A DNA stretch of 64,000 bases from Candidatus Thorarchaeota archaeon (GTDB lineage: Archaea; Asgardarchaeota; Thorarchaeia; Thorarchaeales; Thorarchaeaceae). The stretch lies in NCBI GenBank assembly GCA_019057475.1, contig DXJO01000004.1:64001-128000 (forward strand). Direction: 5' to 3'. Numbering within the stretch: the stretch's first letter is position 1; the number at the start of each line of letters is the position of its first letter. This document shows positions 2,546 to 9,800 of this stretch, piece after piece. The notes below the pieces were generated by a model. That model was given only the letters and a program-made list of their open reading frames with translations, was not told the DNA's origin and did not search any database. The position numbers and the translations under genes are program-made.

Positions 2546-3583
2546 GTGGTACGACCCGGTCCAGGCTGTGCTGTTTGGGAGATCACACTGAAGTGCAATC
2601 TGAATTGCATGCATTGCGGCTCCGCAGCTGGAAAAGCACGAAGCGATGAGCTTACCACAGATGAAGCACTGCAACTATGTGATGACCTGAAAGGCATCGG
2701 TTGTCAGGGCGTCGCTATGATGGGTGGCGAGCCACTACTTAGAAAAGATTGGCCATCTATCGCAGAGCGAGTACGCGAAGTAGGCATGGACCTGTCGATT
2801 ATCACTAACGGGTACAAAATCACTGAGAGCAAATTTCAGCGAATCTTCGATGTCAACCCCGAGTTGGTTACAGTAAGTATTGATGGCGGGCACGCCGCTA
2901 TTCATGATACGATACGCGGAGTTCCGGGCTCCTTCAAACAGGTAGTAGCAACTCTTCGCCGACTCGTGAAATCTGGCTTGCCAACTGGTGTCATCACCAC
3001 TGTCCACAAGATGAACCTAGGCGAGCTTCCCACTATCCGAAAATTCTTGCTGGGCACGGGCGTAGCGTGGCAGATACAGATGGCCACGCCCTACGGGCGT
3101 CTTACATATGATCATGTTCTCTCAAAGGAAGAATACTATTCACTGGCTCTATTCATTGCTGCCACCCGGAAGAGGTACTCCAAGAAGGAGCTCATGATTG
3201 CAGGTGCACATGACATGGGCTACTTCTCACGGGTTCTCCCCCCCTTGCAAGTGTATCCGTGGCAAGGCTGTCAAGCTGGCATCTCAACACTTGGGATTGA
3301 GAGCAATGGAAACATCCTTGGGTGTCTTGCATTGCCTCCGGAGTACGTGGAGGGCAACATTCGCGAACGGCCTCTGAAAGAGATCTGGAACGATGACGCT
3401 TTTTCCTCGTACACTCGCAGAGTTCGGCGGACTGACTTGGGCAGCGAGTGCGCCAGCTGTACATACAGTAAGATATGCAAGGGTGGCTGTTCTGCCGTTT
3501 CTCATTCGATGGCAGGTGGACTTCATCGAGATCCATATTGCCTTCGTCTTATTGAAGAGGGACTCAAGAAAAGCAACAGTTGA
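2546..3583 (+). CDS. Radical SAM/SPASM peptide or protein maturase, PlpX/TIGR03913 (splicease)-like
   Basis: VWEITLKCNLNCMHCGSAAGKARSDELTT (CxxxCxxC), GGEP, SIDG, WQIQ, WQGCQAG..TLGIESNGNILGC and a 7-Cys SPASM domain (CQAG, GC, CxxC, C, GGC, YC); GGAGGGA SD-like site before the GTG. Confidence 0.9.
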   Translation: MVRPGPGCAVWEITLKCNLNCMHCGSAAGKARSDELTTDEALQLCDDLKGIGCQGVAMMGGEPLLRKDWPSIAERVREVGMDLSIITNGYKITESKFQRIFDVNPELVTVSIDGGHAAIHDTIRGVPGSFKQVVATLRRLVKSGLPTGVITTVHKMNLGELPTIRKFLLGTGVAWQIQMATPYGRLTYDHVLSKEEYYSLALFIAATRKRYSKKELMIAGAHDMGYFSRVLPPLQVYPWQGCQAGISTLGIESNGNILGCLALPPEYVEGNIRERPLKEIWNDDAFSSYTRRVRRTDLGSECASCTYSKICKGGCSAVSHSMAGGLHRDPYCLRLIEEGLKKSNS

Positions 3584-3627
3584 CATCTTGGGAAAAACAT
3601 TTCTTCTAAGGACTACTCTATTACATC

Positions 3628-3993
3628 ATGTCATTGATGGATATGATTCCAGTTGGGATTGAACTACTCCGACTTAGTGGGCGAGACGGCGTGTACGCTA
3701 TTCTATCACGGGTGTTCAAAGCTCAACCGACACCTCTGGCATATAGAAGAAGAATCAGGCCGCTCGGCGCTAGCGTAGGATTGTCAGAGGCTGAGGTTGA
3801 CGAGGTTATTAGCGGGAGTTCTAATGTTACGGTCCTTCCATCTTGGTTGAAGTGGGGTCTTGTTGCTTTCATAGTCGTTGTGTTGATTCTTAGTGCCATC
3901 GCGGTGACCGGGTCGTACGTGCCCTGGTATACGAATCCGACCTACGTTCCAGGTACCGACTATGCAAGCATCAGGCCTAAGGATTTCTTGTAG
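3628..3993 (+). CDS. Putative membrane-anchored precursor/substrate protein A (121 aa), C-terminal core TYVPGTDYASIRPKDFL
   Basis: LGASVGLSEAEV motif, one hydrophobic TM helix, conserved C-terminal motif shared with three downstream paralogs. Confidence 0.8.
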   Translation: MSLMDMIPVGIELLRLSGRDGVYAILSRVFKAQPTPLAYRRRIRPLGASVGLSEAEVDEVISGSSNVTVLPSWLKWGLVAFIVVVLILSAIAVTGSYVPWYTNPTYVPGTDYASIRPKDFL

Positions 3994-4113
3994 GAATGGC
4001 CTATTGAGTTCGTGCATATACCTAAAGATCAAGTGGCATTACGCTATTCAATGAATTATCTCATCCCTTTGCGTTGCGTAAGTTTCTTATTGGAGTTAGT
4101 CTAATGTTCATAC

Positions 4114-4446
4114 ATGCTTCTAGATAAACCTCCCACCGTCGGACTTGACATCCTCCGTACCCGGGGCGGAGAGCGTCTTTACCGATTGATTCTTCGAATT
4201 GCGGGGATTCCAACAGTCAGGGCAATGCCCTCGAAGGAATTAGTGCGTCTTGGAGCCAAGGTCGGGCTTGAAGCGTCGGAGGTTGAACAGGTTGCAGAGA
4301 GCAGACCTGATGTAAATGTGCTTCCCGATTGGTTGAAGGCAATTCTAGCCCTCATTGTGATTGTTGGCTCGTACTATCTGGGGCGAAGAATGACCTATCT
4401 CCCCGGGACGTTGTATGGAGCCATAGGTCCACGGGACTTCTTGTAG
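4114..4446 (+). CDS. Putative membrane-anchored precursor/substrate protein B (110 aa), core TYLPGTLYGAIGPRDFL
   Basis: LGAKVGLEASEV motif, VLPDWLK then TM helix, conserved C-terminal motif; closest to paralog A. Confidence 0.8.
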   Translation: MLLDKPPTVGLDILRTRGGERLYRLILRIAGIPTVRAMPSKELVRLGAKVGLEASEVEQVAESRPDVNVLPDWLKAILALIVIVGSYYLGRRMTYLPGTLYGAIGPRDFL

Positions 4447-4539
4447 GAATGGTCCAGAGGGTTCATCTGAATAACTTGGAAACTGGCTTGCATTACGCGT
4501 ATCAATAGCTTTTATGCTTCGGAGCCCTACCGTCTTCTC

Positions 4540-4923
4540 ATGACTTGGAGGGAATCCATTCTCTATGAACTGAACGCAACTCGCTTTCGACGGCTAGGCG
4601 GGCTTGGAGGGCTCAAAGATTGGGTGTGCGGTTTCTTAGCAACTTCAGTTCTTGATACAGAGAAAGCCGAGCAGTTAGGCGCTCAAGCTGGTCTGACTTC
4701 CGACGAGGTTGGAGCTGTTATGGACGCTCGAATGAGCAGAAAAGAGAGCATCCTGTTCAAGCTGACGGTAGTAGTTTTTACGCTCATAATTGTGGGAGCA
4801 GTTATTATGGCAGACCCATTAGGTGTTTTTGGCCAATACCCCGCCACCAACACCACGTACGTGCCGGGTACGCGCTATGGCAGCATCAGCCCGAAGGACT
4901 TCCAGTGGGGATTCGCACATTAA
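4540..4923 (+). CDS. Putative membrane-anchored precursor/substrate protein C (127 aa), core NTTYVPGTRYGSISPKDFQWGFAH
   Basis: LGAQAGLTSDEV motif, TM helix, conserved C-terminal motif. Confidence 0.8.
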   Translation: MTWRESILYELNATRFRRLGGLGGLKDWVCGFLATSVLDTEKAEQLGAQAGLTSDEVGAVMDARMSRKESILFKLTVVVFTLIIVGAVIMADPLGVFGQYPATNTTYVPGTRYGSISPKDFQWGFAH

Positions 4924-5000
4924 CACTTGTCGATTATTCAGGGCCAGTCGCTCTACGCCAACCGATAATCTTAACGGCTTTGACCCCATACTATACAACT

Positions 5001-5369
5001 ATGAATTGGATGGAACTCTGTCTGTATCAACTGGATGTGGTTTCTATCCGAGGGAGCCGCCGCTTCCTTGGGCCTATGGAATGGCTTCGCAGTTTCTTGA
5101 CAAAACCAGTCCTTGGGTCAGAGAAGATCGAGCTGCTCGGTGCTCAAGCAGGTCTCGAACCCAATGAGGCTCGAGACGCAGTAAGCATGCCCGCAAGCAA
5201 GGGTGAGAGCATAGTGTTCAAGCTGGTTGTGGGGATTGTGCTTTTCTCAATCTTGATTTCGATTGTGATTATGAGCCCAATAGGCGCCTACATCAATCAG
5301 GAGCTCTTCAACACAACTTACCTGCCAGGGACACTCTATGGAAGCATCAGTCCGAAAGACTTCAGGTAA
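5001..5369 (+). CDS. Putative membrane-anchored precursor/substrate protein D (122 aa), core NTTYLPGTLYGSISPKDFR
   Basis: Start moved to ATG 5001 because MNWMELCLYQL aligns with MTWRESILYEL of paralog C; LGAQAGLEPNEA motif, TM helix, conserved core. Confidence 0.8.
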   Translation: MNWMELCLYQLDVVSIRGSRRFLGPMEWLRSFLTKPVLGSEKIELLGAQAGLEPNEARDAVSMPASKGESIVFKLVVGIVLFSILISIVIMSPIGAYINQELFNTTYLPGTLYGSISPKDFR

Positions 5370-5374
5370 GCACG

Positions 5375-6688
5375 ATGCGAATCCACGTGGGCTGCGGCCC
5401 GGTCTACAAGAAGGGCTACGTCAACATTGACGTCTTTGATCCTACTGTTGCAGATCGTATCATGTCTGCATATCATCTGGAATTTCCCGATGACTCAGCA
5501 AGTCTTGTGGAGTGTATGCACACTCTCGAACACCTGGGTGCAGCGAAGAGCATCTATGCATTGGCTGAATTCTTTCGCGTATTGAAACCTGGGGGTGTCT
5601 TACTTCTGGAAATCCCAGACATAGAAGCAACCTTTGCAAACTTTCTCAAGCACGGGGAAAAACAAAGGAAGCTCCTAATGAACTGGATCTACGGCTTAGA
5701 TTCGCCAGGGATGGGCCATCGCTACTGCTTCCCCCGGGAACTGCTCAGTCGCATGTTGAAAGAGTCTGGGTTCAAAGATATCCTGTTGAAGCGGCTCGCG
5801 ACCAAATCTATCCAACCATCATTGCGGGTCAAGTGCAGGAAACCTGAATCGTATATTGCCCATCAGATTATTTCACGTGTACGACGTTCTCTGGTAGACA
5901 ATGGCCTAGTTGATCTTGATGACCAAGTCAGTGCACTTGACCGCGAAACTCTCATCCAATCTCTTGCTTCACTGACACATCAGCTGTGTGCCAAATGGGA
6001 TGAACTGGCGCTAAGGCAGATGACCATAGAATCAGCGGTGCAGAATCCGCGAATGGGGTTGGCTTTCATCGAGCAACTTGAGAGCCAGGTTTCTGAGTCG
6101 GCTTCTCGGGTGAAGAGGTATGGGCGGATTCTCGAAACACTGGGGTCTCTTGACTTCCCTGCAGTTTTGTTGCATCTACTTATGCAGGTTCCTCCACAGG
6201 TAGGAACTCAGAACCAGACGTACCTGACTGTCCGAAATATGGGGGTTGCCACTGTCAAGAAGCTTCTTGCAGGAAAGGAAGAACAGGCAGTCTCGAAGGA
6301 GCTGCGACGAACACGTGCGGCGTTGTCTGGCGATAAAATTCTGAGCCACTTCTCTGAAGAAGGAGTGAAGCGCCTTGCAGAGCAGAGTTTCGCTCACGGT
6401 GCAAAAGCTTTTGCTAATCATGAACTAACTGAGGCCGTTCGATTGTTCGAAGAGGCGTTCAGTCTTAATCGTGATGATCTTCTTATTACATGGAACCTAG
6501 CGCGTCTGAAGGCGATCGAAGGAAAAGGAGATACGTCAAAGAAGTACTATGAAATGACTTCCTTGCTTGCCCAACGCTACAAGCAACCCTTCCGTCGAAG
6601 GATGCTCGAGCGGCTTCGCTCTGAAATCAGTCTTGCATCCGAGGGCCAGATGGATGGCCTAGCAGCACCAGTCTACCAGGCCTTCTAG
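5375..6688 (+). CDS. Class I SAM-dependent methyltransferase with helical middle region and C-terminal TPR-like repeats
   Basis: HVGCG..GYVNID, FPDDSA, HTLEHL, FRVLKPGG; C-terminal AVRLFEEAFSLN...TWNLARL TPR-like helices; starts 5 bp after paralog D. Confidence 0.8.
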   Translation: MRIHVGCGPVYKKGYVNIDVFDPTVADRIMSAYHLEFPDDSASLVECMHTLEHLGAAKSIYALAEFFRVLKPGGVLLLEIPDIEATFANFLKHGEKQRKLLMNWIYGLDSPGMGHRYCFPRELLSRMLKESGFKDILLKRLATKSIQPSLRVKCRKPESYIAHQIISRVRRSLVDNGLVDLDDQVSALDRETLIQSLASLTHQLCAKWDELALRQMTIESAVQNPRMGLAFIEQLESQVSESASRVKRYGRILETLGSLDFPAVLLHLLMQVPPQVGTQNQTYLTVRNMGVATVKKLLAGKEEQAVSKELRRTRAALSGDKILSHFSEEGVKRLAEQSFAHGAKAFANHELTEAVRLFEEAFSLNRDDLLITWNLARLKAIEGKGDTSKKYYEMTSLLAQRYKQPFRRRMLERLRSEISLASEGQMDGLAAPVYQAF

Positions 6689-7946: not shown

Positions 7947-9800
7947 TTGAGCAAAGAACGGAAGAAGAAAGAAGACATCTCTTTGGAAGATCTGATAGCT
8001 CTACCTGTCCAGTTCATGGGCAACCCTGGTAGAACTAGTCGAAGAATATGCTTTGCATCAAATAAGACTGGCCGAATGGAATTACATTTACTTGATCTTG
8101 AAACGCAAGAGTTCTCTCAACTATCAAATGGTGAGTATCCAATATCTCCAGTGGGTTGGCATAAATGGGCTCCAGATGACACATATCTCCTATTTCCTAA
8201 GGACCCAATTCAGGGAAATGAGAAGAATGACATCTACAAAATATCAGTCCCAGATGGAAGAGTAACGCAAATTACCAATACTCCTGAATCCAGCGATGAC
8301 TTGGGAGAGGTTAGCCATGATGGGAAATGGATTGTCTTCCGCTCCGATCGTGTTGAGGGTATTGATCAACTGTTCAGAATGCGCCCTGATGGAACGGAAG
8401 TCACGCAGCTCACAGAGCATACCCGCCCGATTTCATTCTGGTCAGATGTTAGTATATCCCCAGATGATGAGTGGATTGCTTATACTGCAAATGAATCAGA
8501 GAATCTCCAGAATATCGATGTATGGGTTGTGAAAATGGATGGTTCTGATAGGAAGAAGCTCTTTGGAGTCCAAGATGGATCAAAGGAGTTGGTTCGGGCT
8601 TGGTCACGCGATGGTACTATGTTATTAGTATCATCTGACTATGCGGGGACTGACCAAGCTGGAGTTTATTTCCTGAACTCAGGTAATGTGAAATGGTTTG
8701 GAGAAGCAAGTGCTCCTGAGTCACCAGTGAAATTCACTGCTGATGGTAAACAAATCATAGTTGGACGTGACATTGATGCTGAGCAGAAACTTCTCCTCTA
8801 TGATATAAAAACTGGAGAGGAAACCACACTCGATATCCCCTCTGGATTTGCAGGTGCAGTATACACTACATTTGACGGAAATCATCTACTTGTGGGTCAT
8901 CAAGACTCGACCCATCGAATGCGTTTCATACTATACGATCTCATCAAGCATTCCTTTGAAGAGGTCATCCCTGCAGAGTATGGGAGATTTTCTCCTGAAG
9001 ATTTCCTCCCAGATGAATACATCAGCTATCCTTCTGGTGACACGACGGTTCATGCGATTCTATACAGGCCAAAGAATCTCAAGCGTGGTGTGAAGCTACC
9101 TGCTATCGTAGTACCCCATGGAGGTCCTACTGGACACTATATCCGCGTCTTCCTTGATGATGCTCAGGTACTTGCAAATGAAGGATATGTCTTATTGTAC
9201 CCGAATGTAAGAGGATCCACAGGATATGGTGTAGAATTCAGAGATGCATGTCTGAATGACTGGGGGGGCAAGGATCTTGATGACGTTGAGGCTGGGGTTG
9301 AGTATCTACGTAGTCTAGATTATGTGAATCCTGACCGAATAGGAATACATGGTGGTAGCTATGGAGGTTATTTGACATTCATGGCTGTCACAAAAAAGCC
9401 AGACCTCTGGAAAGCAGCCTCAGCTTGGATGGGAATCACTTCATTAAAGCATCTCCACGAGAAGTGCAAGGAAACATTCCCGGCTCTGCCATATTACCTT
9501 GAGGAGCAGATGGGCAAACCTGAGGACGAAGGAGTTCTTGAACTATGGGAAGACAGAAGCGCAATCAACTTCGTGAAGAATATGTCCGCCAAGCTTCAAA
9601 TGATTCATGCTGAGAACGACCCGCGATGTCCCATCGAGCAGTCTGAGATGTTCAGAGACCGATTAGTCGAATTGGGACGAAAAGAGGGAGAAGACTTCGA
9701 GTATGTCCATCTAACAGAAGAGGGACACGGGTCATTCGATAAAGACCAACGCGTACGGATGATGCGTCACGTCTTTGACTTCTTTAATCGAAACCTCTGA
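7947..9800 (+). CDS. S9 family peptidase (acylaminoacyl/dipeptidyl peptidase) with PD40/TolB-like propeller
   Basis: HGGP, NVRGSTGYG, GGSYGG nucleophile, ENDPRC Asp, EGHG His. Confidence 0.92.
   Translation: MSKERKKKEDISLEDLIALPVQFMGNPGRTSRRICFASNKTGRMELHLLDLETQEFSQLSNGEYPISPVGWHKWAPDDTYLLFPKDPIQGNEKNDIYKISVPDGRVTQITNTPESSDDLGEVSHDGKWIVFRSDRVEGIDQLFRMRPDGTEVTQLTEHTRPISFWSDVSISPDDEWIAYTANESENLQNIDVWVVKMDGSDRKKLFGVQDGSKELVRAWSRDGTMLLVSSDYAGTDQAGVYFLNSGNVKWFGEASAPESPVKFTADGKQIIVGRDIDAEQKLLLYDIKTGEETTLDIPSGFAGAVYTTFDGNHLLVGHQDSTHRMRFILYDLIKHSFEEVIPAEYGRFSPEDFLPDEYISYPSGDTTVHAILYRPKNLKRGVKLPAIVVPHGGPTGHYIRVFLDDAQVLANEGYVLLYPNVRGSTGYGVEFRDACLNDWGGKDLDDVEAGVEYLRSLDYVNPDRIGIHGGSYGGYLTFMAVTKKPDLWKAASAWMGITSLKHLHEKCKETFPALPYYLEEQMGKPEDEGVLELWEDRSAINFVKNMSAKLQMIHAENDPRCPIEQSEMFRDRLVELGRKEGEDFEYVHLTEEGHGSFDKDQRVRMMRHVFDFFNRNL

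Follow-up and report, generated by a model that had tools for sequence, protein, structure and literature searches.

A candidate tyrosine-editing cassette in Asgard archaea: a splicease-related radical SAM enzyme and a methyltransferase encoded beside four small membrane proteins

We analyzed a window of 64,000 nucleotides from a Candidatus Thorarchaeota archaeon (GenBank assembly GCA_019057475.1, contig DXJO01000004.1, positions 64,001 to 128,000 of the forward strand; all window coordinates count from its first letter) and characterized a six-gene unit encoding a radical S-adenosylmethionine (SAM) enzyme with a SPASM domain, four small paralogs (p1 to p4) and a SAM-dependent methyltransferase. 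The named close relatives of the genome belong to the Thorarchaeota, and the unit is common in Asgard archaea. Most likely, the radical SAM enzyme and the methyltransferase edit a conserved tyrosine in the tails of the four small membrane proteins, and our preferred reading of the cassette is a self-contained protein-editing unit, similar to those for peptides made on the ribosome and modified after translation (RiPPs). Judged from its sequence, the enzyme is splicease-like and belongs to an unnamed splicease-related clade outside TIGR04103, TIGR03913 and TIGR04133. By analogy with related families, the chemistry we lean towards, with a probability of about 0.6, is the excision of tyramine.

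We first consider the candidate substrates. The four paralogs are strongly diverged, with p2 to p4 sharing 27-38% identity with p1, as a preliminary description of this DNA had held for four proteins of 110-127 aa. What they have in common is the leader motif LGxxxGLxxxE, one hydrophobic segment each by hydropathy (the transmembrane-type helix of that description, weakest in p2), and a 16-residue tail, T-Y-x-P-G-T-x-Y-x-x-I-x-P-x-D-F. It was noted that the tail, previously called near-invariant, is indeed shared by all four, with the wording slightly generous: 10 of 16 positions are invariant, and pairs agree at 10-14/16. The motif occurs exactly 4 times in the six frames of the 3.34 Mb genome, always within the cassette. 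The L-Y-G or R-Y-G of three paralogs was found at the Tyr codons reported earlier (Table 1), and the Ala that follows the Tyr in p1 is retained in p1 orthologs. Comparison with same-genus orthologs gave dN/dS values of 0.08 (radical SAM enzyme), 0.13 (methyltransferase), 0.33-0.48 (p1, p2 and p4) and 0-0.21 (the tails of these three).

A search of 1.8 billion representatives returned 209 precursor relatives, and tail counts were taken on 134 representatives. The family-wide core tail is Y-x-x-G-T-x-Y-x-[ST]-I-x-x-x-D-F, and in two alignments, of 39 and 138 rows, no column other than its second Tyr (Tyr113 in p4) is free of variation. The tail register behind these counts was set with a pattern that included Tyr and the +7/+8 positions. 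No Pfam or NCBIfam model, including the Nif11/NHLP leader types, matched the 138 family members; there was also no PF08898 (DUF1843) match, and hhalign of the precursors against DUF1843 gave a probability of 0.1%, in keeping with the earlier statement that they are neither Nif11- nor DUF1843-type. No lipobox Cys was found in p1-p4, and the cassette holds no PlpY-type helper, as all four small open reading frames (ORFs) belong to one family. An ESM Atlas search of the precursors gave sub-threshold Piezo matches alone, which were discounted as chance.

Among the relatives, leader and tail are retained while the middle is swapped, being absent, lipoprotein-like, or a signal plus a Kunitz domain. 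The same enzyme clade is accompanied by anchor-free peptides of 57-67 aa in Thermoplasmatota, by lipoprotein-like precursors in Elusimicrobiota, and by leader-signal-Kunitz-tail precursors, with no methyltransferase nearby, in Thermodesulfobacteriota and Nitrospirota. Soluble relatives carry 3-6 tandem tail copies behind one leader, and several tandem cores behind one leader are a standard multi-core RiPP layout. The six-copy soluble precursor P0265 (locus L114, 5001-5423) lies directly upstream of a clade enzyme.

Several of these loci merit description in their own right. Multi-core soluble archaeal precursors with 15-residue cores comprise P0265, P0286, P0292, P0294, P0299, P0302, P0319, P0321, P0322, P0324 and P0330. 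Another clade enzyme is encoded within 4 kb at the P0265 locus, together with an alpha/beta hydrolase and a B12 radical SAM protein. Three Thermoplasmatota loci (L076, L077, L079) encode two tandem divergent clade enzymes, a methyltransferase and three or four short soluble precursors. A clade enzyme has a precursor built of leader, signal, Kunitz/BPTI domain and K-Y-G tail directly upstream of it in Geomobilimonas, Syntrophus, Smithellaceae and Nitrospiraceae (L082, L083, L084, L090, ~5550-5980), and Geomobilimonas luticola, a carrier of this type, is a cultured strain that would be convenient for testing. A sister enzyme group in Verrucomicrobiota/Bacteroidota (L088, L091, L094) has a different small-protein family upstream of the radical SAM gene, with WQKRMIKDF and (SY/MY)K(I)P-like motifs and no family match.

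We assessed co-occurrence across 400 Asgard genomes, where the figures are plain counts without a test, the genomes sharing kinship and many being fragmentary. The radical SAM enzyme was present in 106/400, the methyltransferase in 105/400, and both in 97/400. The precursor profile matched 82/400 genomes, and 78 of these 82 carried the enzyme, the opposite of small proteins occurring mostly without it; in two further precursor-positive genomes, an enzyme gene adjoins the precursors but is truncated at the end of a contig or disrupted. At one locus (L133 6063-7131, genome G061), the enzyme gene is in two pieces with precursors and methyltransferase intact, reflecting a frameshift or an assembly error. 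The profile missed 28 enzyme-positive genomes, and most of those inspected carry a second precursor type adjoining the enzyme, with a short leader, two apparent hydrophobic segments (by eye) joined to a Y-P-[FY] loop, and x-Y-G-V-[YF] at the terminus. In one genome, both elements recur in three short peptides that are soluble. Two divergent enzymes (38%) lack both partners. The number of divergent paralogs per cassette ranges from 1 to 5 or more.

A version of the cassette is carried by the cultured Promethearchaeum syntrophicum MK-D1 (QEE16170.1, QEE16169.1, DSAG12_01997). Table S3 of PMC7015854 lists DSAG12_01995-01998 at 163, 151, 210 and 218 reads per kilobase per million mapped reads; the methyltransferase and small genes of this archaeon are transcribed, with 01995 and 01996 matched to small ORFs by gene order. 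The three two-helix precursors of this strain (L122 1795-5643) end in Y-G, Y-D and Y-N and offer a natural test of the rule for the residue at +1.

Binding was examined by modelling the enzyme together with p4, SAM and a 4Fe-4S cluster, in three runs with 3 controls. The predicted complex reached an ipSAE of 0.88, and the best control 0.00; this mark was attained by 58/80 solved complexes and 2/110 mismatched pairs, counts that are only roughly applicable here. Agreement between the runs covers at least 93% of contacts, with a partner pLDDT of 64 or more. In this model, the p4 leader (42-61) packs against enzyme helices 158-162 and 195-210, and the tail (105-121) contacts barrel strand 174-178, loop 219-223 and Cys260/Cys315. 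No confident contact joins the hydrophobic helix to the enzyme. No splicease was found among the PDB matches by sequence or fold (the nearest are PqqE, SkfB and SuiB at ~20%), so that recall of a close complex is unlikely; other SPASM-peptide complexes do exist.

The model thus supports binding of enzyme and precursor. Four points lead us to regard the paralog tails as very probably the substrates: the exchange of the middle between a retained leader and tail, the multi-core relatives, the invariant Tyr, and the position of the tail within the enzyme in the complex model. Co-occurrence, the complex model and the multi-core relatives together bear out the original view of a dedicated enzyme-substrate cassette. 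Each precursor would follow a plan of leader (an LGxxxGLxxxE helix pair), hydrophobic anchor and core tail. The leader would dock on the outside of an enzyme that has no RiPP recognition element (RRE), as in binary spliceotide systems, while the tail enters the barrel, and on the modelled contacts the cassette may work like such a binary system.

The enzyme carries PF04055 and PF13186 above gathering score, a CxxxCxxC at 17-24 and seven more invariant Cys (242, 260, 302, 305, 311, 315, 332); a Pfam/NCBIfam profile scan found no RRE domain in it. Its top two hidden Markov model matches are TIGR04103 (PlpX, type I) and TIGR03913, in keeping with the PlpX and TIGR03913 enzymes named at the outset, followed by AhbD and then TIGR04133 (153.7 of 425 bits, below cut-off). 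The enzyme shares with the splicease-type rows W11-E12, G25-S26, W175-Q176-x-Q178, W239-x-G-C-x-A-G, Cys260 and Cys315, which the outgroup mostly lacks, as well as the seven-Cys SPASM and PYC motifs. In a tree of 52 rows, a 100/100 branch separates the precursor-linked clade, TIGR04103/TIGR03913 and TIGR04133 from MftC, TIGR04053 and heme-type rows, and the enzyme does not group with MftC/AhbCD/NirJ-type rows, the check proposed initially. Long-branch paralogs were excluded from this tree. The neighbours of TIGR04103, TIGR03913 and TIGR04133 enzymes also carry x-Y-G, in a Nif11 peptide, DUF1843 peptides and lipoproteins, respectively. The splicease chemistry and the role of the leader or helix are described in PMC11414181, PMC9811515 and PMC11626197.

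Several observations weigh against tyramine excision by a splicease of the known kind. The preliminary description had placed the enzyme within the PlpX/TIGR03913 clade, which does not hold: it scores 227.9 of 725 bits against TIGR04103 and 211.9 of 591.75 bits against TIGR03913, both far below cut-off, and is 35% identical to a TIGR04103 member. The TIGR04103/TIGR03913 clade (100/100) does not include the 34 enzymes that accompany these precursors, which group in a clade of their own (97/97) and have clade-specific residues at predicted contact positions, namely His222 (for Asn), Ile150 (for Asn) and Leu261 (for Pro). The tree used family-annotated stand-ins as references, with no experimentally characterized enzyme, and only four outgroup rows. 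Approximately unbiased tests reject neither sisterhood to TIGR04103/03913 (p 0.089) nor an outermost place by the outgroup (p 0.10), which leaves the deep branch order unfixed and the phylogenetic bracket unproven. The complex model was read as residue contacts, without a Tyr113-SAM distance. The published splicease target is X-Y-G (PMC9811515), and the residue at +1 here is G in 64, S in 38, A in 17, Y in 7 and N in 4 of the 134 tails; the substrates had been named for a YG motif, of which the Tyr stands as invariant and the Gly does not, so that Tyr-motif is the better label. Tyr at -6 (124/134), Gly at -3 (126/134) and Asp at +7 (130/134) show the degree of conservation expected of a cross-link motif made up of several residues. 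Lastly, the spliceotide literature searched described no dedicated methyltransferase for known spliceotide systems.

These points bear on whether the same tails undergo another chemistry, such as a Tyr-centred cross-link (to Tyr, the conserved Gly or a backbone carbon), cleavage or epimerization, with the methyltransferase finishing the product. The separate clade with its own barrel residues, the loss of Gly at +1 with retention of Tyr(-6), Gly(-3) and Asp(+7), and the obligate-looking methyltransferase partner in Asgard are all consistent with this. Tyr cross-linking is common among SPASM enzymes of this fold (PqqE, MftC), and the solved structures closest to our enzyme are those of PqqE and SuiB. 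However, the spacing between the Tyr elements stretches from 6 residues to ~50 in the second precursor type, where a hydrophobic segment also lies between Y-P-[FY] and the terminal Y-G-V, and the first Tyr is missing from several precursors of bacteria and archaea. Both points disfavour a fixed short Tyr-Tyr ring throughout the clade. At +1, Gly remains the most frequent residue, and DUF1843 peptides beside TIGR03913 enzymes vary there too, showing Y-A and Y-M. We consider a different chemistry possible, with the odds against it, and tyramine excision remains our preferred reading. A fuller departure from known systems is more doubtful: that a separate Asgard radical SAM clade, found in about 1/4 of species and active in the cultured one, performs an undescribed two-enzyme Tyr modification of radical step and methylation, with no Gly rule and on tail-anchored substrates, yielding edited surface peptides absent from published surveys.

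It is very unlikely that the small proteins are instead membrane anchors or activators, comparable to PlpY helices, for two enzymes whose target lies elsewhere, for example in a lipid or a different protein. Activating helices are indeed known in PlpY and in the leader of RhaA (PMC11414181), and leader and tail are predicted on opposite membrane sides once inserted. Archaea also have membrane-lipid radical SAM enzymes (weak match 7tol). Set against this are the multi-copy tails of soluble, anchor-free relatives, a tail modelled inside the barrel and under the strongest selection, and a set of divergent paralogs in each cassette, numbering one to five or more, as expected for substrates. An ordinary cofactor or heme enzyme (PqqE, MftC, AhbC/D or NirJ type) beside unrelated small membrane genes is largely refuted by the near-perfect three-way co-occurrence in Asgard, Thermoplasmatota and bacteria. 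In its favour, those families match at 140-166 bits. Against it, these scores are all far below cut-off and lower than those of TIGR04103/03913, the 100/100 branch separates the enzyme from them, and no PqqA/D, MftA/B or heme genes were found in the cassette or compared loci.

The methyltransferase would add a second modification to the same precursors, its presumed methyl target. Its class I domain covers approximately residues 1-155, with intact-looking motifs (invariant GxG, Asp19, Glu-His 52-53), and its C-terminal domain is all-helical in a structure model; of the earlier label methyltransferase-TPR, the first half stands and the second is weak (TPR_19, E=0.08; TIGR02917, E=0.0016, residues 341-393). 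A fold search returned generic class I enzymes only, with no pointer to the target. Isoaspartate formation was dropped as an explanation, as the protein does not resemble PIMT and the second precursor type, which keeps the methyltransferase, lacks the conserved Asp. As a weak lead with exceptions, loci without a methyltransferase tend to have precursors without the first Tyr. An Aureibacter locus (L104 101-4429) holds a DUF1843 trio and radical SAM gene with a RimK-like ligase and a class I methyltransferase on the flanks, the latter being a different protein of 187 aa, which indicates methyltransferase partners in the TIGR03913-like group as well.

We then considered topology. A K/R bias lies on the N-side of the helix in 114/132 members, and together with the bacterial export signals and the disulfide-type Kunitz domain this suggests that the tail is probably outside and the leader inside after insertion. 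The enzyme would need leader and tail at once, so editing would have to precede insertion. The distance from helix to C-terminus has a median of 32 residues (at most 40 in 115/130 members), so that the helix leaves the ribosome only at termination and would be inserted afterwards, like that of a tail-anchored protein; this late insertion would leave time for cytosolic editing. For the two-helix precursors, leader and tail would remain together on one side of the membrane. Because no protease or exporter is linked to the cassette, the product is probably the whole membrane-anchored protein, for which lipoproteins with x-Y-G just after the lipid Cys are a precedent as membrane-tethered Tyr substrates. 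At the cell surface, such a protein would present an electrophilic tail. Spliceotides that contain a ketoamide are inhibitors of serine and cysteine proteases (PMC11626197), and our guess is that the tail may serve to trap such proteases at the surface; the bacterial Kunitz-domain fusions likewise tie it to protease inhibition, as a guess.

The ORF coordinates confirm six co-directional genes, with the methyltransferase 5 bp past the last paralog (Table 1).

Table 1. Genes of the six-gene unit (window positions 2546-6688).
Feature	Position	Strand	Description
Radical SAM/SPASM enzyme	2546-3583	+	345 aa, GTG start
Precursor p1	3628-3993	+	121 aa; leader LGxxxGLxxxE, hydrophobic helix, tail D-Y-A, Tyr codon 3961
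Precursor p2	4114-4446	+	110 aa; shorter hydrophobic helix; tail L-Y-G, Tyr codon 4414
Precursor p3	4540-4923	+	127 aa; tail R-Y-G, Tyr codon 4876
Precursor p4	5001-5369	+	122 aa; tail L-Y-G, Tyr113, codon 5337
Class I SAM-dependent methyltransferase with all-helical, weakly TPR-like C-terminal domain	5375-6688	+	437 aa

The gaps between these genes are 44, 120, 93, 77 and 5 bp, and all six appear intact (tested or aligned). The p4 start was set to the ATG by alignment to p3 and orthologs, and a longer call (154 aa, GTG 4905) was dropped because it overlaps p3 and the orthologs align from 5001. Both flanking genes, citrate-synthase-like and GAPDH, are on the opposite strand and thereby bound the six-gene unit. 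The citrate-synthase-like gene (1389-2384, -) scores below all curated cut-offs, adjoining the cassette in some same-genus genomes and being absent in others. Two genes downstream, an S9-type peptidase with a beta-propeller-like N-terminus (7947-9800, +) was rejected as part of the cassette, as it is missing there in same-genus genome G001. A sigma-70 promoter/terminator scan of the unit was set aside as uninformative for an archaeal host.

The preliminary description knew of no account of this architecture in an Asgard archaeon. The system is confined neither to this genome nor to Asgard, and archaeal spliceotide clusters are mentioned in PMC11626197. Scott et al. 2022 (Chem 8:2659), as summarized in PMC10533398 and PMC11626197, predicted 939 splicease systems with archaeal clusters included, and the enzyme clade may be among them. 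Our literature searches on Asgard RiPPs and archaeal spliceases returned no description or test specific to this cassette. The weight of the proposal is limited: its chemistry is carried over from related families, predictions of spliceotide clusters in archaea existed before, and the role in the cell is guessed. We know of no tested archaeal example of backbone splicing. If the proposal is true, backbone splicing or a cousin of it would be a common conserved Asgard trait, acting on membrane-anchored proteins instead of released peptides, and a relaxed +1 rule with a short leader would broaden the protein-labelling toolbox based on PlpX and RhaX. The soluble natural substrates and the cultured P. 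syntrophicum MK-D1 make the system directly testable.

Among known systems, the TIGR04133 radical SAM enzymes are a related group in the tree with lipobox neighbours bearing x-Y-G, but they differ in the barrel strand (WRxF) and the SPASM Cys pattern, and their motif sits just after the lipid Cys whereas ours is C-terminal. The TIGR03913/DUF1843 systems (Y-x10-GDL) also place at least 3 homologous small Tyr proteins beside the enzyme and vary at +1 (G, A, M); their Tyr is N-terminal and the proteins are soluble, in contrast to the C-terminal Tyr behind an anchor seen here.

The binary spliceotide systems (RhaX/RhaA, RcsX, RasX; PMC11414181, PMC11626197) likewise have no RRE, and their AlphaFold models (PMC11414181) place the leader helix on the surface and the core in the active site, as does our model. 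This likeness is drawn from published descriptions. Their leaders are PlpY-like, and they release their products as peptides, in contrast to our cassette with its lack of a linked protease or exporter. Finally, the Type I spliceotide systems (PlpX/PcpX, PlpY and Nif11-type PlpA; TIGR04103, IPR026482) share W-E, WQxQ, WxGCxAG, the seven-Cys SPASM and PYC with our enzyme, and their neighbouring precursors also have a conserved Tyr, mostly in x-Y-G. Compared with them, the enzyme described here is ~75 aa shorter and works with neither a Y protein nor a Nif11 leader, and the cassette brings a membrane anchor, a relaxed +1 residue and a dedicated methyltransferase.

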